Assembly (NCBI GenBank): GCA_944320785.1
Contig: CALUIR010000006.1
Location: 6,192-70,191, forward strand
DNA: 64,000 nt
Source: an uncultured Bacteroidaceae bacterium
GTDB taxonomy: Bacteria; Bacteroidota; Bacteroidia; Bacteroidales; Bacteroidaceae
Direction: 5' to 3'
The notes beneath the pieces are model-generated. The model was given only the letters and a program-made list of their open reading frames with translations. It was not told the origin of the DNA and did no database searches. Position 1 is the stretch's first letter. Each line of letters begins with the position of its first letter. Shown piece after piece: positions 19,657-46,876 of this stretch. The translations under genes were made by a program, and so were the position numbers.

Positions 19657-19734
19657 GGGCAAATTGATGTGGTTTTTGTTTGTAAAGTGTTATTCTTGGC
19701 TAAAATAGTATTTTTGGCGAAATATTTTGTGGTG

Positions 19735-19742
19735 TAAATTTG
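19735..19742 (+). promoter_or_regulatory. Candidate internal -7 box (TAAATTTG) upstream of GH130
   Basis: TAnnTTTG match 21 nt upstream of the ATG at 19763. A second match, TATTTTTG, lies at 19709-19716. Confidence 0.25.
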
Positions 19743-19762
19743 CAATATGATATAATCATCTA

Positions 19763-22177: not shown

Positions 22178-23560
22178 ATGAAAAAGTATTTTTACAGGAG
22201 TTCTTTCTTGGCGGCGTTAGCTATGCTGTCAATTAATGCAAATGCGCAATTTGCCGGTGGAGCGGGGACAGAGGAAGACCCGTATGTGATAGAAACTGCT
22301 GCACAATTGAACGAAATGCGTAATTATTTAGATGGCAATCATTTTCGTTTAAATGCAGATATTGATTTAACCGATTGGCTTGCACAAAACTCATCGGATA
22401 ACGGTTGGGATCCTGTTGGTGCTAATCCAGATGCCGGAATTACAGGGTCTTTTGACGGAAACGGGCATGTCATTTCCGGCTTTTATATCAATAGGCCAGA
22501 ACTCGAAAACGTCGGATTGTTTGGTTGCGTGAAATCCAGCGGTAAATTCGGAGTGAAGAAATTGGGTTTGATTATTGCTGATGGAAAAGAGGTGAAAGGT
22601 TTAAATAATGTAGGAGGTATTATTGGGCAAGTTCCTTATACTGGCCAAACGATTGAAATGTCGGAATGTTTTGTGATTGGGAATATAACAGCTATTGGTG
22701 ATGGGCAAACTACGGGAGTTGCGGGCCCAATTGTAGCTATGACTTCAGCTTTGGGAACTGTGGAAGTGGTAAATTGTTATACATCAGGAAAGGTTTATGG
22801 CTTTGCTAAGGCTGGCGGCTTGGTTGGCCAAGGGTATCGTGGCATTAAAATTGAGACATCTTATTCCACCTGTGAAGTTGAAGCAGGTACCAATGAGGCT
22901 GAATCCAAAGCTGGAGGTTTGGTTGGAGAATGTGGTTATCCGAATGGTTCGGCCATTCGTCATGATATCATTGCTTCAATAGCTCTAAATTCCTCCATAA
23001 ATGCGCCAAATTCTCCAGCGGCTAATGTAGGGCGTTTGGTTGGATACGAGAAACCAGATAATCCGACACCTTATATGTATGAATTTGCATATGCATGGGC
23101 AGATATGCTGGTGAATGGTGCAGTAGTGACAGATGGCCTTGAGACTAACAAAAATGGCTTGAACCAGTCTTCTGCTGATGTCGTGAAAGAAGATGTTTAT
23201 TTTGGAGATGATTATTTGTTTTGGGATCCGGCTGTTTGGACATTAGGAAATGGAGATTACCAATTACCGATTCTGACTGTTTTTGCTGCTGATAAACAGC
23301 CATCGGATAAAGTTGCTTATCTTCCTGATGGAGAATCATCAAGTATAGGTTCTGTAAATTTGAATGGAATGTCAATTGTTGTTTCAGATGGAGTAATAAC
23401 AATTGTAAATAAGCCAGATGATTCCGAAGTACGTGTTTATGATTTGACAGGGAAACAGGTTTTATTGTCAGGTGAGCCAATAATCAATATATCATCTCTT
23501 AATTCAGGGATATATTTGGTTGCAGTAGGCAAACAAGTAGTTAAGATTGTAAAGGGATAA
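22178..23560 (+). CDS. Secreted GLUG-like repeat module protein with T9SS C-terminal sorting domain
   Basis: Signal peptide (INANAQ). Module at aa 27-375 starts GAGTEEDPYVIETAAQLNEMRNYL...ADIDL and carries repeated (V/A)GG(I/L)(I/V)G motifs. The C-terminal ~70 aa (VRVYDLTGKQV...GIYLVAVGKQVVKIVKG) is typical of a Por/T9SS tail. Confidence 0.7.
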   Translation: MKKYFYRSSFLAALAMLSINANAQFAGGAGTEEDPYVIETAAQLNEMRNYLDGNHFRLNADIDLTDWLAQNSSDNGWDPVGANPDAGITGSFDGNGHVISGFYINRPELENVGLFGCVKSSGKFGVKKLGLIIADGKEVKGLNNVGGIIGQVPYTGQTIEMSECFVIGNITAIGDGQTTGVAGPIVAMTSALGTVEVVNCYTSGKVYGFAKAGGLVGQGYRGIKIETSYSTCEVEAGTNEAESKAGGLVGECGYPNGSAIRHDIIASIALNSSINAPNSPAANVGRLVGYEKPDNPTPYMYEFAYAWADMLVNGAVVTDGLETNKNGLNQSSADVVKEDVYFGDDYLFWDPAVWTLGNGDYQLPILTVFAADKQPSDKVAYLPDGESSSIGSVNLNGMSIVVSDGVITIVNKPDDSEVRVYDLTGKQVLLSGEPIINISSLNSGIYLVAVGKQVVKIVKG

Positions 23561-23656
23561 CAGTATTAGTGTAGGCACGATAGGAAAATAGTTGAATGTT
23601 TTTCATATCGTGCCTTTTTATCAGTTAACAGAGTTGAAACGAATGGATAACAGGAC

Positions 23657-26600
23657 ATGCGAGATTTAATATATTTACATATAAGGAAATGGCGGCACGT
23701 GTTAATGACATTGTTAATGCTTGTGTTTGCCACATCGGTTTTCTCACAGGAAAACACTAAAGTAACAGGGACTGTTCTTGATGCTTCTGGCGAGCCGATG
23801 ATTGGAGTGAACATTGTAGTGAAAGGGACAACAGAGGGAACAATAACCGATCTTGATGGAAAGTATTCTTTGAATATTTCGAATGGTGATGCAGTCTTGG
23901 AATTTAATTATATTGGCTATCAAAAGCAAGAGATATCTGTGAATGGTCGGAACCTGATTGATGTGGTTATGAAGGAAGATAACCAAACTCTTGATGAAGT
24001 AGTGGTTGTGGGTTATGGCGTGCAGAAGAGAGTAAACATGACCGGTTCTGTAGCTTCGGTAAAAGCAGAGAAAATGGAAACAATGCCAGTTGCTAATCTT
24101 TCCAATGCATTAGGAGGACGTGTTTCTGGGTTGGTAACTCAGCAAGCTTCAGGAGAGCCAGGTAATGATGCTTCAACGCTATATCTTCGAGGAAACAAGA
24201 ATCCGCTTGTATTGGTCGATGGAATAGAGAGTGACTATAACATGATCAATATGGAAGAAGTTGAATCAATAACTTTGTTGAAAGATGCATCTGCTGTGGC
24301 ACCTTATGGATTAAAAGGTGCGAATGGGGTTGTATTGGTTACAACTAAGCGTGGAAATAATTCACAAGGAAAAATTTCATTGAATTATAATGGAGAGTTT
24401 GGGTGGCAGAAGCCGACCAATACACCGGAATTTATGGATGCAGCTGATGGGTTGCGCTTAAAGAAAAAAGCGTATGAGATGGATGGCATGCTGGATGAGG
24501 CGAATGCAATCACTGATGAGATACTTGCTGCCCATGAACAGGGTACTGATGCGTATCCTAATACAGATTGGGTTAAGAATTATATGAATACTTCAACCAG
24601 CCAAAAGCATAACATAGTGCTTAGTGGTGGCAATGATTTGATTAGAGCCTATGTTGCTCTGGGGTATATGAAACAAGGAAGTATGTTCAGTGATGACCAA
24701 TATTACCGTCGTTATAATGTGAGAACGAATTTGGACTTAAAGCCAACTAAGACAACAACAGTTTCAGCGGATATTGGCCTTGTCTTTGACCGTAAACGGA
24801 CGAATGCTGCTTCAGCGGAATCTGCTATGACCAATATTTATCGGGCAAAAGCAACAGAGGCTGACGTTTACAGCAATGGATTGCCGGCATTTCAGTCTTC
24901 TATCGGTCAAAGTATGTATCAAACAATTTATGGCGGTGGCGAAAAACGTAATGAGAATAATTATCAGAATATAAGTTTGTCGATTAATCAGGAATTGCCA
25001 TTTGTGAAAGGGCTCTCAGTGAAAGGTCTTTTTAATATGAATAGGAAAGACACTCATGCTAAGAATTGGACGACTCCTTATGAGTATTACGTATATGATG
25101 CAGCAAATAATGTTTATAATAGGTCAGAACTTGCTACTGATGCGGAGCTTTCTCAATCATCGAAGATTAATGCTTATTATACAGTGCAAGCTTATGTGAA
25201 TTATGCTAATTCGTTTGGTAATCACAATTTGTCAGGTTTGTTTGTCTATGAGCGTCGTTGGGGTGGAACCAAATTGAATTATAGCGCACGTAGAGTCGGT
25301 TTTGATGTTTCAATACCCGAGTTGGATATGGGGTCAAAAGATAATCAATACAATTCGGGAACATCTTCCGGTGAAGCGCAAGATGGATTTGTTTTCCGTT
25401 TGAATTATGATTACGCACAAAAGTATCTTGTTGAAGTGGCAGGCCGGTATGATCGAACTTATCAATACGCTCCGGGTCATAGAGCTGCGTTCTTCCCTTC
25501 AGTGTCGTTAGGTTGGCGTATGTCGGAAGAAGCATTCATGAAAGATATTGCTATTATAGATAATTTGAAATTGCGCGTGTCTTATGGAAAGTCAGGTAAT
25601 CCAGTCGGAAACCCGTTTCAATGGAGTCCAACTTATACGATTGGTAATGGATATGTGTGGGGAACAGATCAAATAATAGCTTCTGGCTTGTACGAAAGTG
25701 CTGAGCCAAATCCCAACCTGACGTGGGAGACGGTTCTGAAAGCCAATGTAGGATTTGATTTATCGATGTGGAATGGATTGTTGGGGGTGGAATTTGATGT
25801 GTATCGTGATTATCGGAAAGATAAAATAATTGTTCCAACAGACGAATACCCGACGGAATACGGAATCAGTCCATCACAGTATAATGCGGGGAAAGAAGAA
25901 CGTTATGGTGTTGATTTGACATTGACGAACCATACAAATATTGCTAAGGATTTCTCGATAGATAATCTTTTTGTTTTTGGCTTTTCACGGGATAGGCAAA
26001 TTGATATTGCTGAAGCAATGGGAACATATAGCGTACCTCGTTTTAGACGAACAGGAAAATCTGCATCTCAGTTGAGGGGATATATTGCGGAAGGTCTGTT
26101 CCAAGATCAAGAGGACATAGACAATTGGGCATACCAAAGTGCGACAACACGTCCGGGAGACATTAAATATCGTGATATTAACGGTGATGGAAAGATTGAT
26201 AATGAAGATGAAACAATTATAGGGCGTACACGTGTGCCGGAAATCATGTATGGTTATACATTGGGTGTGAGATTTAAGAATTTCGATTTGAACTTGTTCT
26301 TACAGGGTACCGGGCATTCTGATTTTTATATGGGAGAGGATGCCAGTGGCTCCTCTGACAGAGGTGTACGTTTCCCGTTTGACAATGACAAACCTCGTAC
26401 GGATCACATTAATTCTTGGACGGTAGATAATCCTGATCCGAATGCCAAATATCCAAGATTGTCCACAATTAAAGGAATGAATTACAATACATCTTCATTT
26501 TGGGTTGTGAATACGGCATACTTGAAATTGAAATCATTGGAAATTGGATATAACTTTGATGAAGATTTGTTGAAGAAGATCCATATAAGTCAATTGAGGC

Positions 26601-26731
26601 TGTATTTGAACTTTTATAATCTTTGGACTATTTATTCTGCTATGCCAAGAGATTTTGATGTGGAAACTCAGAATTATAATGCGTATCCGCAGCAATTTAT
26701 AACATCATTAGGTATTAATGCTACATTCTAA
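23657..26731 (+). CDS. SusC/RagA-family TonB-dependent outer-membrane transporter
   Basis: CarboxypepD_reg head (VTGTVLDASGEPMIGVNIVVKGTTEGTITDLDGKYSL), plug (VVVGYGVQKR...), large barrel, terminal aromatic residue (INATF). SusD follows immediately. The start could be the Met at 23705. Confidence 0.93.
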   Translation: MRDLIYLHIRKWRHVLMTLLMLVFATSVFSQENTKVTGTVLDASGEPMIGVNIVVKGTTEGTITDLDGKYSLNISNGDAVLEFNYIGYQKQEISVNGRNLIDVVMKEDNQTLDEVVVVGYGVQKRVNMTGSVASVKAEKMETMPVANLSNALGGRVSGLVTQQASGEPGNDASTLYLRGNKNPLVLVDGIESDYNMINMEEVESITLLKDASAVAPYGLKGANGVVLVTTKRGNNSQGKISLNYNGEFGWQKPTNTPEFMDAADGLRLKKKAYEMDGMLDEANAITDEILAAHEQGTDAYPNTDWVKNYMNTSTSQKHNIVLSGGNDLIRAYVALGYMKQGSMFSDDQYYRRYNVRTNLDLKPTKTTTVSADIGLVFDRKRTNAASAESAMTNIYRAKATEADVYSNGLPAFQSSIGQSMYQTIYGGGEKRNENNYQNISLSINQELPFVKGLSVKGLFNMNRKDTHAKNWTTPYEYYVYDAANNVYNRSELATDAELSQSSKINAYYTVQAYVNYANSFGNHNLSGLFVYERRWGGTKLNYSARRVGFDVSIPELDMGSKDNQYNSGTSSGEAQDGFVFRLNYDYAQKYLVEVAGRYDRTYQYAPGHRAAFFPSVSLGWRMSEEAFMKDIAIIDNLKLRVSYGKSGNPVGNPFQWSPTYTIGNGYVWGTDQIIASGLYESAEPNPNLTWETVLKANVGFDLSMWNGLLGVEFDVYRDYRKDKIIVPTDEYPTEYGISPSQYNAGKEERYGVDLTLTNHTNIAKDFSIDNLFVFGFSRDRQIDIAEAMGTYSVPRFRRTGKSASQLRGYIAEGLFQDQEDIDNWAYQSATTRPGDIKYRDINGDGKIDNEDETIIGRTRVPEIMYGYTLGVRFKNFDLNLFLQGTGHSDFYMGEDASGSSDRGVRFPFDNDKPRTDHINSWTVDNPDPNAKYPRLSTIKGMNYNTSSFWVVNTAYLKLKSLEIGYNFDEDLLKKIHISQLRLYLNFYNLWTIYSAMPRDFDVETQNYNAYPQQFITSLGINATF

Positions 26732-26739
26732 AGAAGAAT

Positions 26740-28554
26740 ATGAAAAGAATAATCAAAATAGGAGTTATGAGTTTTGTCATTGCCATGACATTGGGTTCAT
26801 GCACTGACTTTATGGATATAGAATCAAGAACCACGATTACTGATGATGCAGTTTGGTCCAGTAAATCAGCAACTGCAATGTATGTAGCTGAGACATATAA
26901 TAGTACATTGGATGGCCCATTGTATTGCATGACGAAAGGTATTCGCGATTGGTGGTCTTTTGATCATGCTTGGACGGACGACATGGGAATTTCTGGATAC
27001 ATTTCATTGTCAGAGTTTAGTTTTACTGCAGCAACAATTCCGGAGCCATTCAAAAGCCGTTGGGATGCTTTGTATGAAAATATTCGCAGGACGAATCTTG
27101 GTTTGGAAAAAATTGCAGAATCGGAAGTGTTGACGGATGCAGAAAAAGAACGTTTTTTAGGCGACATGTATTTCCTTCGTGCTTTGAATTATTTGGAACT
27201 TTGGCGCTTCTGGGGAGGAGTTCCTTTGGTGAAGAAAGCATTGGATAAAGAAACGGATGACATTTATTATGAACGCAGCACCTCGGAAGAAACGATGAAA
27301 TTTATAATAGAGGATTTTGGCGAGGCGGCAAAACGTTTGCCGAAGCGTTCAGAACTTCCAGCCGAAGAGTATGGACGTGCTACTCAAGGTGCTGCGATCG
27401 GTTTCCAAGCGGTAACTTATTTGCATGCAGCTGGTGTGATTGATTCAAAATATTATGAAGATGCGGCAAATACCGCAGATATATTGATTAATGGTGATTT
27501 GAAAGGTGAGTATCGTTTGTTTGGGGAGAATGAAGGAGATCCTGATGAAAAATCCACCCCTGAAAAGTTAAGCAAAAAAGCTGAAAATTTTGCGAACTTG
27601 TTTTTGGAACCTTATGAGGGGAATGAAGAAGTGATTTTTGATGTTCAATACAAGAATCCCGAACGTCATCAGCAAGGCTATCAGACAGTAGCAGCTCCTG
27701 GTTATCCTGGTGTTGGCAGTGATTATGGATGGGGCTTTTCCAATCCTTCCCAGATGTTGGTTGATGCATTTGAGATGCAGGATGGAACTTCATTCGATTG
27801 GAATGACCCAGAAAAGGCAGCTCATCCCTATGAAAATCGTGATGCCCGTTTTTATGCATCCATATTGTATGATGGTGCGGTTTGGAAAGATTCAACGCTT
27901 TCATTAAGCACCAATCGTTATGTATGGGATGAAAACGACCGTCGTAAATGGAAAAATGTGACGGATAATTTGCCAAATGGTTTGTATAGTTCAAAAGTGG
28001 AGGCTACAAAAACGGGATATTTTATACGTAAACATCAGAATGAATCGGTTAGTTGTGGTACTGCAAACCGTTATTTGAACAAAGATGGTGAAGGTGGTAA
28101 TTTGATAGTATTGCGTTATGCAGAGATTTTGTTGACATACGCAGAAGCCAAAAATGAAGTTTCCGGTCCGGATCAATCGGTTTATGATGCAATAAACCAT
28201 GTTCGTCGACGTGCAGGACAACCGGAATTATCTGGTTTGGGGCAAGATGAATTGCGGGAACGCATCCGTAATGAACGTCGTGTAGAACTTGCTTTTGAAA
28301 ATAAACGCTATTTTGATATTATGCGTTGGAGGATAGGAGACAAGGCTCTTGTCGGACCTTTTTATCGGATGGAAATTACTTATCAACGGCCTGCCGAAAT
28401 GGTGCAGACATCGCCATCTATTCCTACGTATAACCCGAGAGCTGTTTATTTTACGAGGACTTTTGATTCTCAGAAAAATTACTTATTGCCTATACCGCAG
28501 CATGCGATAAACCGTAATCCGAAATTGGTTGGGCATCAGAATCCAGGATGGTAA
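26740..28554 (+). CDS. SusD/RagB-family nutrient-binding lipoprotein
   Basis: Lipobox (LGSC). SusD-like segments RALNYLELWRFWGGVPL and LRYAEILLTYAEAKNE...RRVELAFENKRYFDIMRW. Confidence 0.93.
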   Translation: MKRIIKIGVMSFVIAMTLGSCTDFMDIESRTTITDDAVWSSKSATAMYVAETYNSTLDGPLYCMTKGIRDWWSFDHAWTDDMGISGYISLSEFSFTAATIPEPFKSRWDALYENIRRTNLGLEKIAESEVLTDAEKERFLGDMYFLRALNYLELWRFWGGVPLVKKALDKETDDIYYERSTSEETMKFIIEDFGEAAKRLPKRSELPAEEYGRATQGAAIGFQAVTYLHAAGVIDSKYYEDAANTADILINGDLKGEYRLFGENEGDPDEKSTPEKLSKKAENFANLFLEPYEGNEEVIFDVQYKNPERHQQGYQTVAAPGYPGVGSDYGWGFSNPSQMLVDAFEMQDGTSFDWNDPEKAAHPYENRDARFYASILYDGAVWKDSTLSLSTNRYVWDENDRRKWKNVTDNLPNGLYSSKVEATKTGYFIRKHQNESVSCGTANRYLNKDGEGGNLIVLRYAEILLTYAEAKNEVSGPDQSVYDAINHVRRRAGQPELSGLGQDELRERIRNERRVELAFENKRYFDIMRWRIGDKALVGPFYRMEITYQRPAEMVQTSPSIPTYNPRAVYFTRTFDSQKNYLLPIPQHAINRNPKLVGHQNPGW

Positions 28555-28576
28555 TTGAATAGTAAAAATGGAATGT

Positions 28577-28972
28577 ATGAAAAAGTTGGTTTATGTTTTG
28601 TTTACAATGTTGCTATTAGGAACTGTTGGATGTTCCAAGATTGATTATGAAATCAGTGATGCATACGAGCAAGCTAATATTACTGGAATTACTATATATG
28701 CGGTAACAGATAATCCGGTGAATATAGTCGAAAGTTTTGAAATTGACACGGAAAATGCCATCGTAAGGGCTTTTGTTCCGGAAGGAACCGATTTGACTCA
28801 TTTGAGATTGGTGTTGACTTTGTCGAGTGGGGCTACTGTTTCGCCTGCTTTGGGAGGTTTTCAAGATCTTTCTTCACCCTTGGAATTTACTGTAACATCC
28901 CCTAATGGCATAAAGCAAATTGCTTGGCAAGTTATAGTGGCTGCAACGCCTTCTGCTGAAAGTAGTATATGA
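28577..28972 (+). CDS. Small surface lipoprotein downstream of SusD (possible glycan-binding accessory protein)
   Basis: Lipobox LLLGTVGCS. An Ig-like domain of about 110 aa. The position is typical of SGBP-like PUL proteins. Confidence 0.5.
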   Translation: MKKLVYVLFTMLLLGTVGCSKIDYEISDAYEQANITGITIYAVTDNPVNIVESFEIDTENAIVRAFVPEGTDLTHLRLVLTLSSGATVSPALGGFQDLSSPLEFTVTSPNGIKQIAWQVIVAATPSAESSI

Positions 28973-28987
28973 TAATCTGTTAAAAAT

Positions 28988-29020
28988 GGATGTGCCACTA
29001 TTGGGTGGTGCATCCTTTTG
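28988..29020 (+). terminator. Intra-PUL terminator or attenuator after the SusCD-lipoprotein unit
   Basis: 11-bp stem GGATGTGCCAC / GTGGTGCATCC (two G-U pairs), 6-nt loop, then TTTT. Confidence 0.5.
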
Positions 29021-29066
29021 AAGTAGCTTGATTATTGCCATAATCTTTTTTCAATAAAATGATTTT

Positions 29067-30140: not shown

Positions 30141-30176
30141 ATGTAATAGGAATTTAATAATAAAAAGAATCGATTT

Positions 30177-31583: not shown

Positions 31584-32875
31584 AGCGATTGATTTTGTTA
31601 AGTATGTGGGTCTGCTTGTCATGGGCTTGCTTGTCGCAACCGGCTCAGCAAATGGTACATGTATCTGTTGTTCCTGACAGCGATACATGGCTCTATGCGT
31701 TGGGTAAAGAGGCAAACTTCAAAATAGCAGTAACACGGAACGGGATTTTTCAAAAAGGGGTAAAAATCAGGTATGAACTCTCTCAGGATATGATGGAGCC
31801 TTTCAAGAGTGAAACGATTATTTTGCCTGAGGGTGTTGTTACGGTGAATGCAGGTTCGTTAGATGCATCTGGTTTTTTGCGTTGCCGAGTATTTGCAGAG
31901 ATTGATGGAAAGCAATATGAAGGAAGAGGGACGGCAGGATATGAACCACGGGCAATTAAGCCTACTACGGCTATGCCGTCTGATTTTCGTGAGTTCTGGG
32001 AAAGGGCTAAATCCGAGAACGCTGAAGTACCGATGGATGCATGTTTGCGTTTATTGCCTGATAGATGTACCTCAAAAGTTGATGTTTATGAATTGAACGT
32101 GCAAAGTTTTCAACGTGGAAGCCGTATGTATGGGATACTTTGTGTTCCAAAGGGCAGAGGGAAATATCCGGCTTTATTGCGTGTGCCTGGAGCCGGAGTC
32201 CGTCCTTATGAAGGGCATATTGCTGAAGCAGAGCGTGGATATATAACATTGGATATGGGCATACATGGCATTCCTGTCACAATGCCGCCATCGGTTTATC
32301 AAGATTTGCGTTATGGGGCGTTGGATGGTTATTGGAATTTTAATTGGGATGACCTTGATGCAATTTATTATAAACGGGTTTATATGGGATGTATCCGTAT
32401 GGTTGATTATATATGTAGTATGTCTGTGTTTAATGGTGATTTGGTTGTTTATGGAGGTAGTCAAGGTGGTTTATTGTCACTGGTGACAGCGGCATTAGAT
32501 GATAGGGTAAAAGGTTGTGTCGTGATTCATCCAGCTTTGGCTGATGTGAATGGGTATTTGTATGGCCGGGCTGGCGGATGGCCTCATTATTTCAAAGATA
32601 AGGATGGCATGGATGCTACAATTCGGGAAAAGGAGGAAAACATTGCTTATTATGATGCTGTCAATTTTGCGCGGATATTGGATAAGCCTGTTTTTATGTC
32701 GTTTGGATATAATGATATGGTGTGTCCGCCTACAACATCTTATGCCGTGTATAATAGTATATTGTCTCCAACGACATTTGTCCCAGTTCCGGAAACAGAA
32801 CATTATACTTATCCTGAAATATGGCAAGATGCTTGGGATTGGTGTGGAAATCTTTTGAATGGAAATAATAAATAA
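31580..32875 (+). CDS. CE7-like acetyl esterase (acetylxylan esterase / cephalosporin-C deacetylase family)
   Basis: Nucleophile elbow YGGSQGG, and the AXE1-like stretch PKGRGKYPALLRVPGAGVRPYEG. Its ATG overlaps the GH28 stop (ATGA). Confidence 0.8.
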   Translation: MKRLILLSMWVCLSWACLSQPAQQMVHVSVVPDSDTWLYALGKEANFKIAVTRNGIFQKGVKIRYELSQDMMEPFKSETIILPEGVVTVNAGSLDASGFLRCRVFAEIDGKQYEGRGTAGYEPRAIKPTTAMPSDFREFWERAKSENAEVPMDACLRLLPDRCTSKVDVYELNVQSFQRGSRMYGILCVPKGRGKYPALLRVPGAGVRPYEGHIAEAERGYITLDMGIHGIPVTMPPSVYQDLRYGALDGYWNFNWDDLDAIYYKRVYMGCIRMVDYICSMSVFNGDLVVYGGSQGGLLSLVTAALDDRVKGCVVIHPALADVNGYLYGRAGGWPHYFKDKDGMDATIREKEENIAYYDAVNFARILDKPVFMSFGYNDMVCPPTTSYAVYNSILSPTTFVPVPETEHYTYPEIWQDAWDWCGNLLNGNNK

Positions 32876-32900
32876 TTGTTTAATTTTAATACTGGATATC

Positions 32901-35609: not shown

Positions 35610-35776
35610 GCAATGGCACTCTTGGTTCTTGAATACGTTTAGGGCATTGCTTGTGTTGGTTTGCAGGGGGACCATGATAAACTTTCGGCTGTTGTGATAA
35701 GCCTCTAACTTCTCCTCGCAAGGGAAAAGCCAGTTTTTCAAGTACCATAGGCAACATTAAATATTGAACAAATCGA

Positions 35777-35817
35777 ATGAAAGGCGGCGGGACATATCTG
35801 TTGCCGCTGCCTTTCAT
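35777..35817 (+). other. Strong hairpin immediately upstream of the symporter start codon
   Basis: ATGAAAGGCGGCGG (35777-35790) pairs with CCGCTGCCTTTCAT (35804-35817), giving 13 bp with one mismatch. It ends 12 nt before the ATG at 35830 and has no T-run. Confidence 0.5.
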
Positions 35818-35829
35818 ATACCACATATC

Positions 35830-38408: not shown

Positions 38409-38438
38409 ATTGACTATGTTTCAGATAAATCTATTAAC

Positions 38439-41400
38439 ATGAAAAAACTGATTCTCTTATTTGGCTTTTTTGTTTTTGGCCAATTGGCTTATGCAAATGT
38501 GACGGGAAGATTGAAAATCAATCTCAATGCAGATTGGAAGTTCTCAAAAGGCATATTGACTGACAATCCCGCTTTGGTGGATTATGCAGATGGCAGTTGG
38601 GAGATTGTGGATATTCCCCATTGCTGGAATTCTGCAGATGCGCAAGATGGGGGGAACAATTATTCACGTACAGTCGGCTGGTACAGGAAGAATATTCCAT
38701 GGAATGCTTCTTATGAAGGCAGGAATTTGTATATAGAGTTTTTAGGGGCTTGTTTACAAGCCGAATGTTTCGTGAATGGCGAATCAGTGGGCATCCATAA
38801 GGGAGGTTACACAGTCTTTCGCTTTGACATTACTTCGAAGATGACGCAGGGTGACAATGTGATTGCCGTGAAAGTCGATAACCGGCAGTCTGAAGAAGTT
38901 GCGCCTCTTGGAGGAGACTTCTCGGTTTTAGGAGGCATATACAGGGATGTCTCCCTGATTGTGGCCAATCCTGTGCATGTGGATTTGATGGACAATGGGG
39001 CTTCTGGCCTTTATTTGACTCCAACGGATGTGGGCAGGGATAATGCAAATTTGGAGATACGCTCCAATATCGTGAACAATTCGTCAGAACCGAAGTCGGT
39101 GACGTTTCATGGGATTATCAGGAATCCGGATACTTTTGATGCAATATCCAATGTGCCTAATCCGAATTTTGATGTGAAGGCAATGTGTCCCGGTGGAGAC
39201 CCTATTCAAACTGTAAGCAAAGAAGTCGTGATTGCGGCTGGGGATTCCTATTTGTTTAAAGAAAGCATAGCGGTTACGAATCCGCATTTGTGGAACGGCA
39301 AGAAAGACCCTTATCGTTATATCGTTGATTTGAAAATCTATGAAGGTGATAATTTGATTGATTCTGTGTCTGATTATGTTGGATTCAGGTATTATTCGGT
39401 CACCAAAGAAGGCTTCTTCTTGAATGGAGAACTATATCCGTTGCGAGGCGTAGGGAAACATCAAGATCAATACAATAAAGGGTATGCTGTCACGCATGAA
39501 GACATGAATGAGGACTTTGGCATCATCTATGAGATGGGCGCAAATGCAATCCGTCTTGCGCATTATCCTCACGATCCTTACATGTACGAACTGTGTGATC
39601 GCTATGGTTTGGCTGTTTGGACAGAGATACCATTGGTGGATCGTCCGGGAGTAGCAGAAACTTTCAATGAAGTGACAAAAGGGCAATTGAGGGAACTGAT
39701 TCGCCAACGTTATAATAACCCATCGGTTTTCTTTTGGGGATTGCAGAATGAGATTCGGGAACAGCACGATGAGCAGATGAGAACGTTGATGAAAGAACTG
39801 GATGATTTGGCGCAGCAAGAAGACCCGTCCCGCTTGACTGTCCAAGCAACAAACCATAACACGGCACGCAATTGGGATTCAGATGTTTTTGCTTGGAATT
39901 ATTATCCCGGATGGTATGTGCAGAATCCTTTGTTCAGCAGCAAATTGGATAGCTTTAAAGACGAGGCGCGTCCTACGGCATTGTCCGAATATGGGGCTGG
40001 CGGAAGTATTTATCATCACGAAATTAATCCGGCAAAGCCTGTGACCAATGGTGGAAAATTCCATCCTGAAGAATACCAGAACAAGGTGCATGAACAGGCC
40101 ATCATTGACATTTCGACTCGCGATTTCGTATGGGGTACTTTCTTGTGGAACATATTTGATTTTGCTTCCGATGGACGGAACGAGGGCGACCAGCCTGGGA
40201 CAAATGACAAAGGGTTGGTGACTTATGACCGTAAGGTTAAAAAAGATAGTTATTATGCATATAAAGCGAATTGGAGTGATGAGCCTTTTGTGTATATAAC
40301 GAGCCGGAGATATACGGAGCGTGAAGAACTGGTAACGCCCGTTACTGTTTATTCCAACTGCGAGACGGTTGAATTATTCATTAACGGAGCTTCCCAGGGA
40401 CAGAAGAAGGCAGAAGATGTCCAATGCGGAATATTCAAATGGGATAATATGAATCTGCAATTCGGAATTGATAATAAGGTGAAAGTTGTGGGCATGAAGG
40501 ACGGGAAAGAATATTCGGATGAAGTATCATGGAAGAAAAGAACAGGAACCACAACGGAACTCCAATCTGATGAATTAATTATAGATACAGAAAACAAGCG
40601 GATTATTCTTAAAAAAGATATCCCGGTGCAAGAGATTGGCGAATATTTGCAAGGAGTGGATGGGGCAACATTCGTCATTGTTGAATCAGATGGTGAGACC
40701 ATTGTGGCAGATGGATTCATAACTGTTGGGATGAAAGTCATTGTAACTTCAGAGGATAAGCAGAACACGGCAGTATATGAGTTTGTTCCCGGCCATATCG
40801 CATTGAGCAAGACAGTTTCCACCGATTCAGAGCAAGTTGATGAAAACAACTTGGCGATTTATGCGGTGGATGGGAATTATTCAACACGTTGGGCGGCGAA
40901 AAATGCAAAGCCTCATTGGATAGAAATAGATTTGGGAAAAGAATATTTCTTGAACAGGGCTGTGGTCTATTGGTACAATCCTAATGGCACGAGAACGTAC
41001 CAATATTATGTTAAAGTGTCAAATGACAAGAATAACTATCTTATGGTGGCTGATCGGTCTGAGAATAGTTCATCGGATGCGGTAGCAGACAATTTGGAGG
41101 GCAGAGGCAGATATGTGAAAGTGGATGTCTTGGGAGGTAATGGCTCGACGGCATATCCTTCACTGTACGAAGTTGAAATTTATGGATGGATGATTGAATC
41201 AGATAAATATGTGATTGATTTTGAGAAAAATGAAATACAAATACCAAAAACGGAAGAAAACGTGCAGAACCTCACGACTGATAAGTTCTTGGAAAACATC
41301 TCATTTGACGGTAATTTGTCGTATGCCCTCAATAGCATGTCATATTTCATTCAAGAGAATGATGAACTTGTCATAACGGATTATTGTGGTCAAGAAACAA

Positions 41401-41678
41401 AGTTTAAGTGTGTATTTGTGGATGATTTGACTTCCGTGGATGCAGTGATGGAACCGTTGCCTTTTAAGGTCACTAGCCGGAAGCATGAAATATTTGTTGA
41501 AATCATGGATTGTGCAGAACCATTAAAATTGGAAATTTCAGATTGTTTGGGGCGTGTTCTTGTTTCTGAACATGTTACGGGCAAGAATTATACATGTCGC
41601 TTGGGCAGTGGGCTTTATGTGGTCAGTTTGTCAGGAGGGCATTTGAGGAATGAGGCTATTAAATGTTTAATCAAATAA
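38439..41678 (+). CDS. GH2 glycosidase with F5/8-type-C (discoidin) domain and T9SS sorting domain
   Basis: GH2 sugar-binding and TIM regions (WEIVDIPHCWN, NAIRLAHYPHD, WGLQNE, SEYGAGG). Discoidin-like AVDGNYSTRWAAKNAKPHWIEIDLG...YEVEIYGW. C-terminal tail LYVVSLSGGHLRNEAIKCLIK. Confidence 0.85.
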   Translation: MKKLILLFGFFVFGQLAYANVTGRLKINLNADWKFSKGILTDNPALVDYADGSWEIVDIPHCWNSADAQDGGNNYSRTVGWYRKNIPWNASYEGRNLYIEFLGACLQAECFVNGESVGIHKGGYTVFRFDITSKMTQGDNVIAVKVDNRQSEEVAPLGGDFSVLGGIYRDVSLIVANPVHVDLMDNGASGLYLTPTDVGRDNANLEIRSNIVNNSSEPKSVTFHGIIRNPDTFDAISNVPNPNFDVKAMCPGGDPIQTVSKEVVIAAGDSYLFKESIAVTNPHLWNGKKDPYRYIVDLKIYEGDNLIDSVSDYVGFRYYSVTKEGFFLNGELYPLRGVGKHQDQYNKGYAVTHEDMNEDFGIIYEMGANAIRLAHYPHDPYMYELCDRYGLAVWTEIPLVDRPGVAETFNEVTKGQLRELIRQRYNNPSVFFWGLQNEIREQHDEQMRTLMKELDDLAQQEDPSRLTVQATNHNTARNWDSDVFAWNYYPGWYVQNPLFSSKLDSFKDEARPTALSEYGAGGSIYHHEINPAKPVTNGGKFHPEEYQNKVHEQAIIDISTRDFVWGTFLWNIFDFASDGRNEGDQPGTNDKGLVTYDRKVKKDSYYAYKANWSDEPFVYITSRRYTEREELVTPVTVYSNCETVELFINGASQGQKKAEDVQCGIFKWDNMNLQFGIDNKVKVVGMKDGKEYSDEVSWKKRTGTTTELQSDELIIDTENKRIILKKDIPVQEIGEYLQGVDGATFVIVESDGETIVADGFITVGMKVIVTSEDKQNTAVYEFVPGHIALSKTVSTDSEQVDENNLAIYAVDGNYSTRWAAKNAKPHWIEIDLGKEYFLNRAVVYWYNPNGTRTYQYYVKVSNDKNNYLMVADRSENSSSDAVADNLEGRGRYVKVDVLGGNGSTAYPSLYEVEIYGWMIESDKYVIDFEKNEIQIPKTEENVQNLTTDKFLENISFDGNLSYALNSMSYFIQENDELVITDYCGQETKFKCVFVDDLTSVDAVMEPLPFKVTSRKHEIFVEIMDCAEPLKLEISDCLGRVLVSEHVTGKNYTCRLGSGLYVVSLSGGHLRNEAIKCLIK

Positions 41679-41690
41679 TGTTTTAAAACC

Positions 41691-44000
41691 ATGAAGAACT
41701 ATTTATTTTTATTGGCATTCCTTTTTGTGAGTGCAACTGTTTTTGCCGTTCCTCAAGGAGATGGCAGTGTTGATAATCCTTATTTACTAACGGATGCTTC
41801 AGAACTGAATGAAATCCGTAATCATCCCGATGCGCATTACCGTTTGATGAACGACATCGATTTGGGAGACTGGCTTGCAGAAAACTCTCCCGAAGAAGGT
41901 TGGGAACCCATCAATGGTTTCACAGGTTCTTTGGACGGCAACGGTTTTGCCGTTTCAGGTTTCTGGATCAACCGTCCTTCCACCGACAAGGTGGGTTTGT
42001 TCGGCAGCATCTCTGGCGGCACAATCAAGCGTTTGGGCTTGTTGATGGCAGACGGGAAAGGCGTTGTCGGCAATAACAACGTCGGTGCTTTTGTGGGGCA
42101 CACTCCTTATTCCACATCGGCCATCACCATTGAAGAATGTTTTGTTTCGGGCGGCACGGTGGAAGCCAAAGGTTCTGCGGCAGGCGGCATTTTGGGATAC
42201 ACTTCCACGAACAGTGTGGTTCTCAACATTGTGAATTGTTATGTGGCTGGCACGATGGTGATTGGCGCGGATGGCGCAGGTGGCATTGTCGGCACGGCTT
42301 ACCGCAGCATTAATGTGGAGAACTGTTACAGCACAGGTCTTGTGAAGTCCGCGAACAATGATAAGTCGGCAGGCGGCATTGTCGGAGGGACGAATGACCA
42401 GAGTGATGCATATACAGTGAAGAATTGCATTGCTTTGAATTCGGAAATTCAATCTTCAAAATCGGCAGGCCGCATTGTGGGTTGGATAAAGAGTGCTGAT
42501 AAGACGGTACTTTCTAATAATTATGCTTTTGCTGGAACATTGGTGGATGGTTCAATGATATCAGGCGAATTGACAGACAGCAATGGCTTGAACAAGAGCA
42601 AGGAAGAAGTGAATGAACAGGCGACCTATGAATCTTTGGGTTGGAGTTTTGGTGAAGAAGGCGTATGGACGATGGGCAACGGCGAGTATGCTTTGCCGGT
42701 ATTGAAAAATGTCTCTATAGAAAAACAACCGATTGTAATGCCGGAACATTTGGAGATTGAAAAGGAATTGGGAAGTGTTGATAACCCTTATTTAGTGACA
42801 ACTGCTTCTGAATTGAATGACATTCGCAATAATCCCGCTGCGCATTACCGTTTGATGAATGATATTGATTTGACAGATTGGCTTGCAGAAAATTCTTCGG
42901 AGGAAGGCTGGGAACCGATTAATGATTTTACAGGATCTTTGGATGGCAATGGTTTTACCATTTCGGGCTTCTGGATCAACCGTCCTTCCACAGACAAAGT
43001 GGGTCTGTTCGGTAGTATTTCAGGTGGTACCATTAAACGTTTGGGCTTGTTAATCCCAGACGGGAAAAGCATTGTGGGAAACAACTATGTGGGCGGCATT
43101 GTCGGCCATACGCCTTATACGACATCGGCTATATCTATTGAAGAATGTTTTGTTTTTGGTGGAACGATTGAAGCGAAGGCTACTGCTGTTGGTGCCATAT
43201 TGGCTTATACTTCGACAAATAGTGTGACGGTGAACATTCGTAATTGTTATGTGGCAGGCACTACGGTGATTGGCGCAGATGGTGCAGGCGGCGTGACGGG
43301 TACTGCTTATCGGAGCATAAACATAGAGAATTGTTATAGTACCGGCATTGTGAAATCAACGAATGATGATAAATCGGCTGGAGGAATTATTGGTGGTGTG
43401 AATGATCAAGGAAAAGAATATATAGTAAAGAACTGCATTGCCTTGAATTCTGATATTCAATCATCAAAATCGGCAGGACGTATCGTTGGTTGGGTGAAAA
43501 CAGCAGATAAAACCACGCTTTCCAACAATTATGCTTTTGACGGAATATTGGTGGATGGTGTAACGGTGTCAGGTGTTGATACAGATAATAATGGCTTGGG
43601 CAAGAGCAGGGAAGAAGTGAGTGACCAGGCTACTTATGAATCCTTGGGTTGGGATTTCAGTGAGGAAGGTGTTTGGACGATGGGCAACGGCGAGTATGCT
43701 TTGCCGGTGTTGAAGAATTTTTCCATGGATAAACAACCCATTGCGATGCCAGAACACTTGAAAGGACCTTCTGTGCAAATTGGGGAGAAGGAATCGCCAG
43801 CTTTGCTTGTATATCCTACCGTGACGAATGGCATGGTGTTTATTGACAACAAGGCTGCTTCTTCGATGGTGTTTGTGTATGATTTGTCCGGGAATATGGT
43901 GATGCAGTCTGATGCATCGGCTTTGAATTTGTATCCTTTGTCTGATGGCATTTATTTGATAAAGGTAGAAGGCACAGTTGTTAAAGTACAAAAAGATTAG
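41691..44000 (+). CDS. Secreted protein made of two tandem GLUG-like modules plus T9SS sorting domain
   Basis: Signal peptide. Module 1 at aa 23-352 and module 2 at aa 359-688 are in register with a 336-aa offset. C-terminal VFVYDLSGNMV...GIYLIKVEGTVVKVQKD. Confidence 0.78.
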   Translation: MKNYLFLLAFLFVSATVFAVPQGDGSVDNPYLLTDASELNEIRNHPDAHYRLMNDIDLGDWLAENSPEEGWEPINGFTGSLDGNGFAVSGFWINRPSTDKVGLFGSISGGTIKRLGLLMADGKGVVGNNNVGAFVGHTPYSTSAITIEECFVSGGTVEAKGSAAGGILGYTSTNSVVLNIVNCYVAGTMVIGADGAGGIVGTAYRSINVENCYSTGLVKSANNDKSAGGIVGGTNDQSDAYTVKNCIALNSEIQSSKSAGRIVGWIKSADKTVLSNNYAFAGTLVDGSMISGELTDSNGLNKSKEEVNEQATYESLGWSFGEEGVWTMGNGEYALPVLKNVSIEKQPIVMPEHLEIEKELGSVDNPYLVTTASELNDIRNNPAAHYRLMNDIDLTDWLAENSSEEGWEPINDFTGSLDGNGFTISGFWINRPSTDKVGLFGSISGGTIKRLGLLIPDGKSIVGNNYVGGIVGHTPYTTSAISIEECFVFGGTIEAKATAVGAILAYTSTNSVTVNIRNCYVAGTTVIGADGAGGVTGTAYRSINIENCYSTGIVKSTNDDKSAGGIIGGVNDQGKEYIVKNCIALNSDIQSSKSAGRIVGWVKTADKTTLSNNYAFDGILVDGVTVSGVDTDNNGLGKSREEVSDQATYESLGWDFSEEGVWTMGNGEYALPVLKNFSMDKQPIAMPEHLKGPSVQIGEKESPALLVYPTVTNGMVFIDNKAASSMVFVYDLSGNMVMQSDASALNLYPLSDGIYLIKVEGTVVKVQKD
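41757..42746 (+). repeat. GLUG-like module coding repeat R1 (~0.99 kb)
   Basis: Aligns to R2 at a +1008 nt offset. Aligns to R3 at +3890 nt, dropping to +3887 after a 3-nt indel. 41861-42010 is identical to 45751-45900. Confidence 0.9.
42765..43754 (+). repeat. GLUG-like module coding repeat R2 (tandem copy in the same gene, more diverged)
   Basis: Same amino-acid register as R1, with many synonymous and conservative differences. Confidence 0.85.
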
Positions 44001-44012
44001 TTTGGGTTGTTT

Positions 44013-44052
44013 GTAAATGGGCGTGTCGGAATAGGCATGCCCATTTACCTTT
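44013..44052 (+). terminator. Possible intra-PUL terminator or attenuator
   Basis: 10-bp perfect stem GTAAATGGGC (44013-44022) / GCCCATTTAC (44039-44048), followed by CTTTT. Confidence 0.4.
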
Positions 44053-44068
44053 TAAACAGGATTTTATT

Positions 44069-46876
44069 ATGAGAGCAAAAATATTGATATCATTTTTAGC
44101 ATGTATTGCAACTTTGAATCTGAATGCGAGAGGTGCTGTTGTAGAAAACGGCGTAGCACTAGATGCGGATAACAATCAGGCTGTATTGACCAAGCTGGAT
44201 GTTGCTACGCAGATGAAAAAAGTCAATGACTATTATATGGCACGGCATCAAAGCCCAGGAAACAGTTGGGTCACTTCTGCTTATTTTGTAGGTTGCATGA
44301 AGTTTTATAATCTTTACCCAGAACAGCGGGTGTTGGACTACATGAATGGTTGGGCTGAAAATCATGAATGGAGTTTAGGAACTAATGCGGACAAACATGG
44401 GGCAGACGGGCAGGTTTGCGGACAGACTTATATTGACCTTTATGTGTTGGACGGGAAACGGGATGACCATAAAATCAATGCAATAAAAACATGCATTGAT
44501 GACTTGGTGGCCAATCCTTCTGAGTCGATAGATGATTGGTGGTGGGCGGATTCCTATTTTATGGCCATGCCTATTTTTGCCAAGCTGGGTGCTTTGTATG
44601 ATGATGATGCTTATTTCAAGCAGATGCATGATATGCAGGAATATTCCATGAATCGTTGGAAATTGTATAATGAAACAGACCATTTTTGGCATCGTGACAG
44701 TACCCAAGTATTTGGAAAAGCAGAAAGCCCCAATGGAAAGCCGGTTTATTGGTCGAGGGCAAATGGATGGGCCATTGCAGCATTTGCATTGGCGATGGAT
44801 TGTTTGCCGGACGACAGTCCTTATCGTGCGAAATATGTCCGATTATTGCAAGAAATGGCAGAGTCATTGCGTAATGTGCAACGTGAAGATGGGTTTTGGA
44901 ATAGGAACTTGGGTGACGACCAACATCTTCCGGGACCGGAAACCAGTGGCACGGCATTGTTTGCCTATGGCATAGCATGGGGGATTAATCATGGGATATT
45001 GGATGAAAATATTTATCGCCCGGTTGTGGAGAAAGCGTGGAATGGCTTGGTGGATATTGCAGTTCGGGAAGATGGTTTGTTAGGTTATGTCCAAGGACCG
45101 GGTTTCAAGCCTGAATCGAATTATCCATTGGATGAAAACACTTCTTATGACTATGGGGTTGGTGCTTTTTTGTTAGCAGGGAGTGAGGTGATTGAAATAG
45201 CAGAAGGAGATATGCCTGCGTTAGGTGATTTGCCAGATCGATTCGATGAGGAAGAAATCAATATGGAGGTGACTGCCAGTGCATCGGAAAATTCATCTCG
45301 GACTCCGGATAAAACATTGGACCGTGATTTCTCAACTCGTTGGTCTGCCGAAGGAGAACAATGGATTAAATACGATTTGTTGGAATCTGAAATAGTGAGT
45401 GCTGTGGAATTGGCTTTTTGGGATGGGCATAAAAGGAAGTTTTATTTTTCGATAGAATTGTCTGAAGATGATGAGAACTGGCAGGAAGCATTTGATGGCG
45501 AATCGAGCGGGACGGTGGATAATGATTGGGAGAAGTTTCCCATAACACCTTGTAAGGCGCGCTATGTGAGAATCAATGGACATGGCAATAGCAGCAACCG
45601 TTGGAATAGCATTTTGGAGACAAGGATTCATGCTGAGAAAATTCCTCCTTTAGGCAGTGCAGAAAATCCTTATTTAGTGACGGATGCTTCAGGGCTGAAT
45701 GAAATCCGCAATAATCCCAATGCGCATTACCGTTTGATGAATGACATCGATTTGGGAGACTGGCTTGCAGAAAACTCTCCCGAAGAAGGTTGGGAACCCA
45801 TCAATGGTTTCACAGGTTCTTTGGACGGCAACGGTTTTGCCGTTTCAGGTTTCTGGATCAACCGTCCTTCCACCGACAAGGTGGGTTTGTTCGGCAGCAT
45901 ATCCGGCGGCACCATCAAGTGTTTGGGCTTGTTGATAGCAGAAGGTAAAGGGGTTGTCGGTAATAATTACGTTGGTGCTTTTGTGGGGCATACGCCTTAT
46001 TCTACATCGGCCATTACCATTGAAGAATGCTTTGTTTCGGGCGGCACGGTGGAAGCCAAAGGTTCTGCGGCAGGCGGCATTTTGGGATATACATCCACGA
46101 ACAGCGTGGCTTTCAACATTGTGAACTGTTATTCAGGCACGACGGTAATTGGTGCGGATGGGGCAGGCGGCATTGTCGGCACGGCCTATCGTAGCATTGA
46201 TGTGGAGAACTGTTACAGTACAGGTATCGTGAAATCAGCGAACAATAATAAGTCAGCGGGCGGTATTGTCGGCGGAACAAATGCTTTGAGCGATTCTTAT
46301 GTGATACAGAATTGTATTGCATTAAATTCAGAAATTCAGTCTGCGAAGTCAGCAGGCCGTATTGTGGGTTGGATGAAAAGCGAGGAAAAAGCAAAACTTT
46401 CTAATAATTATGCATTTGCCGGAATGTTGGTGGACGGTGCAACGTTGTCAGGCACGGCAACAGACAACAATGGCCTGGACAAGGCCAAAGAAGAAGTGAA
46501 TGAACAGGCAACCTATGAATCTTTGGGCTGGGCTTTTGACGACGAAGGCATTTGGGTGATGGGCAATGGCGAGTATGCTTTGCCGGTATTGAAGAATGTT
46601 TCTATGGGGAAACAGCCGATTGTGATGCCGGAACATTTAAAGATGGATGATTCTTCTATTTTAGGTCTAAAAAAGCCTTTGTTTGTTTATCCGACTGTGA
46701 CAGATGGTGAAATATTCATTTATAATAAGCCGTTGCATTCAATGGTATTTGTGTATAACTTGTCGGGATGTTTGGTCTTGCAATCCGAGGCATCGGTCTT
46801 GAACCTTTCTTTTTTGCCTAAAGGCGTTTATTTGATAAAGGCCAATGATGAGATGGCAAAAGTGCAGAAACTGTAA
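44069..46876 (+). CDS. Four-module secreted protein: GH105/GH88-type unsaturated uronyl hydrolase + discoidin domain + GLUG-like module + T9SS sorting domain
   Basis: Glyco_hydro_88 fold motifs (DDWWWADSYFMAMP, YWSRANGWAIAAFA, ETSGTALFAYGIAWG, GLLGYVQGPG). Discoidin-like DRDFSTRWSAEGEQWIKYDL. GLUG-like module at nt 45647-46633. C-terminal VFVYNLSGCLV...GVYLIKANDEMAKVQKL. Confidence 0.8.
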   Translation: MRAKILISFLACIATLNLNARGAVVENGVALDADNNQAVLTKLDVATQMKKVNDYYMARHQSPGNSWVTSAYFVGCMKFYNLYPEQRVLDYMNGWAENHEWSLGTNADKHGADGQVCGQTYIDLYVLDGKRDDHKINAIKTCIDDLVANPSESIDDWWWADSYFMAMPIFAKLGALYDDDAYFKQMHDMQEYSMNRWKLYNETDHFWHRDSTQVFGKAESPNGKPVYWSRANGWAIAAFALAMDCLPDDSPYRAKYVRLLQEMAESLRNVQREDGFWNRNLGDDQHLPGPETSGTALFAYGIAWGINHGILDENIYRPVVEKAWNGLVDIAVREDGLLGYVQGPGFKPESNYPLDENTSYDYGVGAFLLAGSEVIEIAEGDMPALGDLPDRFDEEEINMEVTASASENSSRTPDKTLDRDFSTRWSAEGEQWIKYDLLESEIVSAVELAFWDGHKRKFYFSIELSEDDENWQEAFDGESSGTVDNDWEKFPITPCKARYVRINGHGNSSNRWNSILETRIHAEKIPPLGSAENPYLVTDASGLNEIRNNPNAHYRLMNDIDLGDWLAENSPEEGWEPINGFTGSLDGNGFAVSGFWINRPSTDKVGLFGSISGGTIKCLGLLIAEGKGVVGNNYVGAFVGHTPYSTSAITIEECFVSGGTVEAKGSAAGGILGYTSTNSVAFNIVNCYSGTTVIGADGAGGIVGTAYRSIDVENCYSTGIVKSANNNKSAGGIVGGTNALSDSYVIQNCIALNSEIQSAKSAGRIVGWMKSEEKAKLSNNYAFAGMLVDGATLSGTATDNNGLDKAKEEVNEQATYESLGWAFDDEGIWVMGNGEYALPVLKNVSMGKQPIVMPEHLKMDDSSILGLKKPLFVYPTVTDGEIFIYNKPLHSMVFVYNLSGCLVLQSEASVLNLSFLPKGVYLIKANDEMAKVQKL
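45647..46633 (+). repeat. GLUG-like module coding repeat R3 (near-identical to R1)
   Basis: See R1. It contains the 150-nt perfect identity block at 45751-45900. Confidence 0.9.

Follow-up and report, generated by a model that had tools for sequence, protein, structure and literature searches.

A GLUG-type beta-helix module repeated in a Bacteroidales polysaccharide utilization locus: a candidate surface binding or targeting domain linked to GH28 and GH105 enzymes

Few building blocks are as common in the surface proteins of bacteria and archaea as GLUG-type beta-helices, and the papers that mention the family describe its function as unknown or putatively adhesive (PMC9723798, PMC9210967). 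In the M26 IgA1 proteases, a homologous beta-helix termed NTD2 (solved for S. pneumoniae as 6XJA/6XJB and for G. haemolysans as 7UVK) adjoins the catalytic domain, lines and gates the substrate cleft and shapes substrate access, and it is itself non-catalytic (PMC9637739). Besides this gating role of the M26 homologue, we found no tested function for the family. A further relative, BACOVA_03286 of Bacteroides ovatus, was solved by structural genomics as 3N6Z under the name "putative immunoglobulin A1 protease", and we found no paper that mentions it. In this work we analyzed a module of ~330 aa that occurs five times in four same-strand open reading frames (ORFs) of a polysaccharide utilization locus (PUL) of an uncultured Bacteroidaceae bacterium. 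The DNA examined (the window) is a stretch of 64,000 nt from contig CALUIR010000006.1 (assembly GCA_944320785.1, positions 6,192 to 70,191). An earlier note, made from the letters of this DNA, had proposed that the module is either a new glycan-binding module or an unrecognized catalytic one. We propose, with a probability of roughly 0.45, that it is a non-catalytic surface binding or targeting module displayed by the type IX secretion system (T9SS) and comparable in role to a carbohydrate-binding module (CBM) or a surface glycan-binding protein (SGBP).

All five copies lie on the forward strand. Copy 1 (22256-23302; 523.8 bits, positions 2-334 of a five-copy profile hidden Markov model, HMM) is the most divergent, at 33-44% identity to the other copies, copy 2 (33000-33998; 498.6 bits) is N-terminal to a GH28 domain, copies 3 and 4 (41757-42746 and 42765-43754; 578.0 and 572.0 bits) form a tandem pair, and copy 5 (45647-46633; 567.7 bits) belongs to a GH105 protein. 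When the profile was run against all window ORFs of at least 80 aa it matched only these four proteins, over HMM positions 2-334 and at 498-578 bits, and no sixth copy was detected among those ORFs. The five placements in the earlier note are thereby borne out, and the conserved N-terminal motif and the W(T/V)MGNGxYxLPVL ending that it described are both present in the alignment. The MAFFT alignment of the five copies (~330 residues) has 75 invariant columns and a mean column identity of 67%. Copies 3, 4, and 5 are mutually 77-85% identical, and the identity of copies 1 and 2 to the others is 33-46%. The dN/dS ratio among copies 3-5 is 0.10-0.18, and the module copies are under purifying selection. 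Copies 3 and 5 reside in different genes and share 86% DNA identity with an identical run of 158 nt, which suggests a recent duplication or gene conversion. From the copy identities, the dN/dS values and the identical run, we concluded that the module genes are maintained and that some of them are recently duplicated. All the modules are acidic, with a pI of 4.3-5.2 and a net charge of about -16 to -23.

The earlier note had read the module as a beta-solenoid, and structure prediction agrees. Copy 3, modeled on its own with AlphaFold2 (AF2), gave an all-beta solenoid of ~7 regular coils with a helical N-cap and a C-cap (pLDDT 95.4, pTM 0.94). In a Foldseek search this model matched 3N6Z at TM 0.74 and IgA1 proteases at TM 0.51-0.57 (normalized to the query); the latter matches are taken to be the NTD2 beta-helix. 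Copy 2 adopts the same fold in the AF2 model of the full-length GH28 protein (pLDDT 83.6, pTM 0.74 for the whole chain), with TM 0.77 to 3N6Z (normalized to the target). An hmmsearch of the PDB sequences with the five-copy profile also finds 3N6Z (3n6z_A) at E 3.1e-18, with profile positions 2-316 aligned to chain residues 42-352. Over the module part of the four proteins, Pfam and NCBIfam annotate only GLUG and a faint, sub-threshold Peptidase_M26_N match, with the T9SS domain at the tail. The resemblance to GLUG stands in part: PF07581, which models only a 28-aa motif and not the whole ~330-aa domain, passes its cut-off of 20.5 bits in the tandem protein (27.7 bits) and the GH105 protein (26.6 bits) and stays below it in the GH28 protein (16.2 bits) and copy 1 (10.2 bits). 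The module matches no characterized CBM or adhesin of known specificity in Pfam or NCBIfam, and no Pfam CBM model matches the module region even at E values up to 10. On profile and model evidence, the module is best described as a right-handed beta-helix of the GLUG / 3N6Z / M26-NTD2 type, a fold and family that are already known. Its presentation as an unrecognized module does not hold, since the whole domain has been solved as 3N6Z and is represented in M26 NTD2 as well.

The likeness to these relatives has limits. In 3N6Z the whole ~330-aa domain aligns, including the N-cap, the GLUG coils and the C-cap, and both BACOVA_03286 and the stand-alone protein of the window are single-domain Bacteroidales proteins. 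The module and 3N6Z are only 24-25% identical, however, and the 3N6Z domain reaches residue 352 of 363, which leaves no room for the C-terminal T9SS domain of ~70 aa that the window proteins carry. M26 NTD2 shares the beta-helix fold and the weak Peptidase_M26_N sequence signal, but the window proteins have no M26 catalytic region, their partner domains are glycoside hydrolases rather than a metalloprotease, and they are predicted to be attached via T9SS whereas the M26 proteases are attached to the Gram-positive cell wall. An M26 IgA1 protease, as the name of 3N6Z might suggest, was rejected as an identity: none of the four module proteins contains the zinc-binding HExxH motif, and the NCBIfam model ZmpA reaches 11.7 bits, far below its cut-off of 3000. 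With the GLUG family the module shares its hydrophobic-GG(I/L)(V/I)G coil repeats; GLUG members are mostly giant multi-repeat proteins outside glycan loci, whereas the window's subfamily is a discrete single domain tied to carbohydrate-active enzymes (CAZymes).

A feature that had escaped the earlier note is a type-A T9SS sorting domain at the end of all four module proteins, each of which also begins with a signal peptide (read from the translations). The stand-alone protein (22178-23560, 460 aa), directly upstream of SusC, consists of a Sec signal peptide, copy 1, a short linker and the T9SS C-terminal domain (CTD). Its tail matches Por_Secre_tail (PF18962) at 27.3 bits and TIGR04183 at 25.3 bits, and its module is 87% identical in Coprobacter secundus (locus L005), the nearest named genome. 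The second protein (32859-35609, 916 aa) carries, by Pfam and NCBIfam, the module, a GH28 domain whose nearest relative is the galacturonidase 5OLP, and a CTD; its mechanical ORF start is probably too early, the true start being the Met of MKTKNG at codon 15 (after 32859-32900). Two tandem modules, both matched by the profile, and a T9SS tail make up the third protein (41691-44000, 769 aa). The fourth (44069-46876, 935 aa) is composed of GH105, F5/8-type-C, module and CTD (Glyco_hydro_88 at 247 bits, F5_F8_type_C, Glug at 26.6 bits, Por_Secre_tail). Its glycoside hydrolase (GH) domain is GH105-like with 5NOA, 4Q88, and 4CE7 as the best solved relatives. The reported fusions to GH28 and GH105 and the repeated recruitment of the module to this locus are upheld. 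PF18962 matches the sorting domains of all four proteins (23321-23557, 35360-35606, 43758-43997, and 46637-46873), and the four tails align with one another. TIGR04183 (cut-off 23) scores 25.3, 31.9, and 25.2 bits in the first three proteins and 18.6 bits in the fourth. The module adjoins the sorting domain in three of the four proteins, and the GH28 protein has it at the opposite end. Characterized T9SS cargo of Porphyromonas gingivalis crosses the outer membrane, loses its CTD and is fixed to the surface via anionic lipopolysaccharide (LPS). By analogy, the module proteins are likely to be surface-displayed via T9SS. Given the T9SS tails on all four, the PUL would appear to show its surface enzymes via type IX secretion and not as lipoproteins.

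We then considered the members, here called the subfamily, whose match to the profile is complete and extends over the C-cap (W.MGNG.Y.LP.LK...QP). The module-GH28-CTD architecture is kept in 11 clusters of 56-100% identity (P0282-P0292). In three further lineages, all metagenomic, a module-T9SS gene lies directly 3' of the 1,079-aa gene encoding GH2 and F5/8-type-C domains that precedes the tandem module gene in the window. Stand-alone relatives include a 462-aa orthologue in the C. secundus locus and 441-aa proteins (P0010-type) that follow GH2 elsewhere. Further settings are a module-T9SS gene beside GH28, GH2, and GH28 genes (L093); a stand-alone module-T9SS gene adjoining a GH28-T9SS gene in Symbiothrix; two modules fused to an Abhydrolase_2 esterase within a cluster of GH5, HTCS (hybrid two-component system) and GH3 genes; and a module fused to a SASA carbohydrate esterase. 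One two-module protein (P0177) is a lipoprotein with a CSDDK motif that resembles a surface-export signal. Among orthologues the module is 73% identical, a value below those of GH28 (81%) and the GH2 core (76%) and above those of F5/8 (61%) and the CTD (30%).

A further comparison is locus L092, which has the order AraC, GH130, MFS (major facilitator superfamily), epimerase, GH26, three module-T9SS genes, SusC, SusD, a 133-aa lipoprotein, GH28 with two CBM6 domains and a CTD, and PL8 with a CTD; it is a distant version of the PUL type found in the window. Its three consecutive stand-alone module-T9SS genes (6629-11353) lie directly upstream of SusC/SusD, and their modules are 34-40% identical to copy 2 in local blastp matches. 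The L092 GH28 (17067-20102) has two CBM6 domains and a T9SS tail in a protein that is 26% identical to the window's and is not its orthologue. A domain swap, in which the two CBM6 domains had replaced the module, was considered and set aside as weak for that reason. These fusions and neighborhoods with GH28, GH2, SusC/SusD, and esterases recur across lineages, and we concluded that recruitment of the subfamily into glycan-degrading loci is real and recurrent in several Bacteroidales lineages. A CAZyme-linked, T9SS-tagged subfamily with fixed places in one PUL type appears to be undescribed. As a further point for display via T9SS, in Bacteroides salyersiae (L088, 9492-10651, GCA_019733595.1) a module-CTD gene follows the same GH2 gene, is frameshifted and has an internal stop in the CTD. 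To our knowledge the genus Bacteroides lacks T9SS, and this gene looks like a T9SS cargo gene decaying after transfer into such a genus.

Placement is also what the module has in common with CBMs and with SGBPs of the SusE/F kind: it is appended to catalytic domains, occurs in tandem and lies beside SusC/SusD, and the analogous GH28 of L092 bears CBM6 domains. The differences are of fold (a beta-helix as opposed to a beta-sandwich) and of attachment (T9SS as opposed to a lipid anchor, with the lipoprotein P0177 as the exception). The stand-alone gene (22178-23560) abuts SusC, as do its counterparts in L005 and L092, but it lies upstream of SusC and not downstream of SusD, and its product is not a lipoprotein. 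A serine-rich-repeat adhesin of Lactobacillus reuteri from an unrelated family (PDB 5NXK) is a weak Foldseek match (TM ~0.32, E ~0.1) and a lead only. Its non-catalytic beta-solenoid region is reported to bind pectin or polygalacturonate (Sequeira et al. 2018). If so, it would offer a precedent for a non-enzymatic surface beta-helix that binds an acidic polysaccharide.

The wider family presents a different picture. At E <=1e-3 the five-copy profile matched 73,643 representative clusters (50% identity) among 1.84 billion, with 10,188 of them at <=1e-30, and the top matches are 2,000-7,800 aa long and contain 10-30 stretches of the module. On contigs from one genome per species, relatives were found in Planctomycetota, Paenibacillus and Bacillus, Leptonemataceae, Synergistales, Bacteroidales, and one haloarchaeon. 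GLUG matched 41 of 48 related genome-encoded proteins, whose partner domains include T9SS tails, InlB B-repeats, SLH, cadherin-like, Big, fn3, and LamG; no GH or polysaccharide lyase (PL) catalytic domain is among the 25 most frequent of the 46 families that co-occur in these 48 proteins. The 76 neighbors of 12 distant Bacteroidota loci showed no enrichment of SusC/SusD or GH genes, and other distant members lie in one integrase neighborhood and one mixed housekeeping context. The wider family thus consists mostly of giant adhesin-like surface proteins outside carbohydrate loci, and the idea that the module is tied to carbohydrate loci stands for the full-length subfamily, in other Bacteroidales too, and not for the family of 73,643 clusters at large. 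The earlier note had named equal frequency outside carbohydrate-related loci as grounds for refutation, and at the family level this is what is seen. A non-PUL use of the module was seen in two loci (L083 6002-14611 and L084 3-9578), where tandem arrays of five or six paralogues of ~500-650 aa, each a module with a dockerin, adjoin BACON_2/CarboxypepD_reg proteins.

The columns conserved in two sets of diverse family proteins (36 and 48) are G, F, W, L, I, P, and the Asp of DIDL. No conserved acidic, basic or histidine constellation is present on the coils, either in the family or in the subfamily. We also set 29 non-redundant modules of the subfamily against 590 stretches of the wider family, counting residues conserved at 80% or more. 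The comparison is limited to HMM positions 1-215, as the wider-family stretches had been selected without the C-terminal region, and over these positions the only subfamily-specific conserved residue is W40, in the N-terminal cap. A stripe of Tyr, Arg, Trp, and Lys after the GGxxG strands, seen by eye, was dropped from consideration as it is not conserved in the GH28-fused lineage. The DSSP string of the copy 3 model shows short, regular coils, from which long cleft-forming loops are probably absent. In Foldseek the TM to PL1, PL6, GH28, and FdlA is only 0.15-0.32, with E of at least 0.02. A pectate-lyase-like catalytic beta-helix (PL1/3/6/9, GH28, CE8) was rejected as unlikely on these TM values and on the lack of a conserved charged constellation. 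Because there is no conserved charged constellation, no HExxH and only low similarity to PL and GH28 folds, a catalytic role of the module is unlikely.

How might such a module work? We suggest that the module proteins would cross the outer membrane, lose their CTD and become attached to the surface via anionic LPS. Alone or in tandem, the module would then act like a surface glycan-binding protein beside SusC/SusD; fused to GH28 or GH105, it would act like a CBM, holding the enzyme on the polymer or substrate particle. This proposal draws on the confident fold, the lack of an active site, the predicted T9SS display, the link to glycan loci at the subfamily level and a conservation above that of a linker, and on the habit of the wider family of forming part of adhesin-like surface proteins, in company with SLH, InlB-repeat, Big, cadherin-like, dockerin, and T9SS domains. 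Glycan binding by the module is plausible. Several points weigh against the proposal. No binding-site residues are conserved across the subfamily, which fits lineage-specific ligands and a pure scaffold equally. As acidic domains, the modules are poorly suited to bind directly the uronate-rich polymers to which GH28, GH105, and PL8 point, except where cations mediate the contact or neutral side chains are the target. The GH2 and GH105 proteins already carry an F5/8-type-C (CBM32-like) domain, and the contexts of distant members show that the wider family is not carbohydrate-specific. A stronger form of the proposal, in which the CAZyme-linked subfamily is a genuine CBM family that, in Bacteroidales with T9SS, doubles as a CBM appended to other domains and as the T9SS-anchored equivalent of the lipoprotein SGBPs of classical PULs, is doubtful at present. 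It would be the first with a beta-helix fold, and we know of no beta-helix CBM family.

The subfamily is tractable for deciding among these possibilities. It is a single well-folded domain of 330 aa, found by itself, in tandem and in fusions with GH28, GH105, and esterases; its surface display is predicted, and the enzymes of the locus narrow the candidate ligands. If glycan binding is true, the module would add a new fold to the CBM repertoire and give a first biochemical function to a family of >70,000 clusters. It would also show how gut Bacteroidales with T9SS equip their PULs with surface binding proteins without lipoprotein SGBPs. If the module binds no glycan it would be a rigid scaffold, an ordinary finding.

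Such a passive role, in which the module has no ligand of its own and serves as a rigid stalk or spacer keeping T9SS-anchored catalytic domains off the LPS layer, is unlikely in our judgment, although much is compatible with it. The domain closest to the predicted anchor is the module in three of the four proteins, the wider family forms arrays of 10-30 stretches in proteins of 2-8 kaa, and all conserved residues are structural. A spacer role has also been proposed for DUF1735 and BACON in PUL lipoproteins, and architectures combining DUF1735 and GLUG have been reported (PMC11216935). A spacer is nevertheless not the best fit because the stand-alone proteins are positionally conserved, the module of the GH28 protein is distal from the anchor, and the module (73%) is conserved almost as well as the catalytic domains and far better than the CTD (30%). 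The proteins that consist of one or two modules and a CTD have nothing to space, yet they are kept beside SusC or GH2 across lineages.

The module could alternatively be an adhesin or assembly domain for a partner other than the substrate, such as host mucus or cells, other bacteria, or proteins of the locus itself (for example in clustering T9SS enzymes around SusC/SusD). The homologous domain of the M26 IgA1 proteases contacts its protein substrate (PMC9637739), family members have been proposed as adhesin-like in gut archaea and among fibrillar adhesins (PMC9210967, PMC9723798), and paralogue arrays bearing dockerins exist. The pTM of 0.74 for the module-GH28 model is compatible with fixed packing of the two beta-helices and may mean such packing, but a pTM with no predicted aligned error (PAE) map is weak evidence for it. 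The tight and repeated co-location or fusion with GH28, GH2, GH105, and esterases across lineages points to the substrate and not to a host target, and we consider this alternative quite improbable. Least probable by far is a cryptic enzyme, i.e., an unrecognized beta-helix glycoside hydrolase, lyase or esterase acting on the substrate of the locus. In its favor, no fold is commoner among pectin-active enzymes than the beta-helix, uronate-directed enzymes abound in the locus, proteins of one module and a dockerin or T9SS tag are laid out like secreted enzymes, and a possible catalytic role has been raised for a 3N6Z-like cluster (PMC9210967). Against it, the coils carry no conserved constellation of Asp, Glu, Lys, Arg, or His and, judging from the DSSP string, probably no long loops, the TM to PL1, PL6, GH28, and FdlA is only 0.15-0.32, the homologous IgA1-protease domain is non-catalytic (PMC9637739), and GH105 already has a partner lyase in the PL8 of the locus. 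The catalytic option of the earlier note is disfavored.

The module genes belong to a same-strand locus at 16894-50068 on the forward strand, annotated here by Pfam. Its first half reads GH78, GH130, GH26, module protein, SusC, SusD, a small lipoprotein, SGNH esterase, GH28, and AXE1-like esterase, and its second half module-GH28, MFS_2 transporter, 2-epimerase, GH2, the two-module protein, GH105-module, PL8, and AraC regulator. The SusC-like TonB-dependent transporter (23657-26731; Pfam CarbopepD_reg_2/Plug) and the SusD-like protein (26740-28554; Pfam SusD_RagB/SusD-like_3) are followed directly by a 134-aa lipoprotein (28568-28972) with the lipobox LLGTVGC and a weak likeness to DUF5018. 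This small protein sits where surface glycan-binding proteins usually lie; it is 31% identical to the 133-aa product of the same-position gene in L092, and a 127-aa gene occupies that place in L001. It may be a minimal SGBP-position protein. The locus mixes a mannan cassette (GH26, GH130, 2-epimerase, MFS) with GH28, GH105, GH78, GH2, and a PL8 whose nearest solved relatives are chondroitinase AC, and no single substrate could be named from its gene content.

The GH2 and F5/8-type-C protein (38439-41678, 1079 aa by ORF; domains from Pfam) lies directly before a module gene in every related locus examined. Its last ~70 residues (window 41350-41678) look by eye like a T9SS tail (…LGSGLYVVSLSGG…AIKCLIK); a weak DUF6383 match (18.9 bits) was the only hit to this tail, and a purpose-built CTD profile did not match it. 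For the 2-epimerase ORF, the GTG start (37134-37205), which overlaps the MFS gene, is probably too early, and an internal MMKDIV is the likely start.

The host is a Coprobacter-like gut bacterium. Positions 16-48 kb of the window have a low GC content (0.39-0.45) compared with the flanks (0.47-0.55), and parts of the PUL recur at high identity in metagenome-assembled genomes labeled "Bacteroides sp." (L001, L006). The low-GC block and this recurrence suggest that the locus has moved horizontally. Downstream of the PUL, window positions 50721-58645 encode a TPR protein, a radical-SAM enzyme, a CarboxypepD_reg-domain protein and an ABC exporter with a C39 peptidase, and the region is syntenic in L089. 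The cluster resembles a maturation and export system for a peptide (a ribosomally synthesized and post-translationally modified peptide, RiPP, or a bacteriocin), and L089 has an 80-aa gene before the radical-SAM gene.

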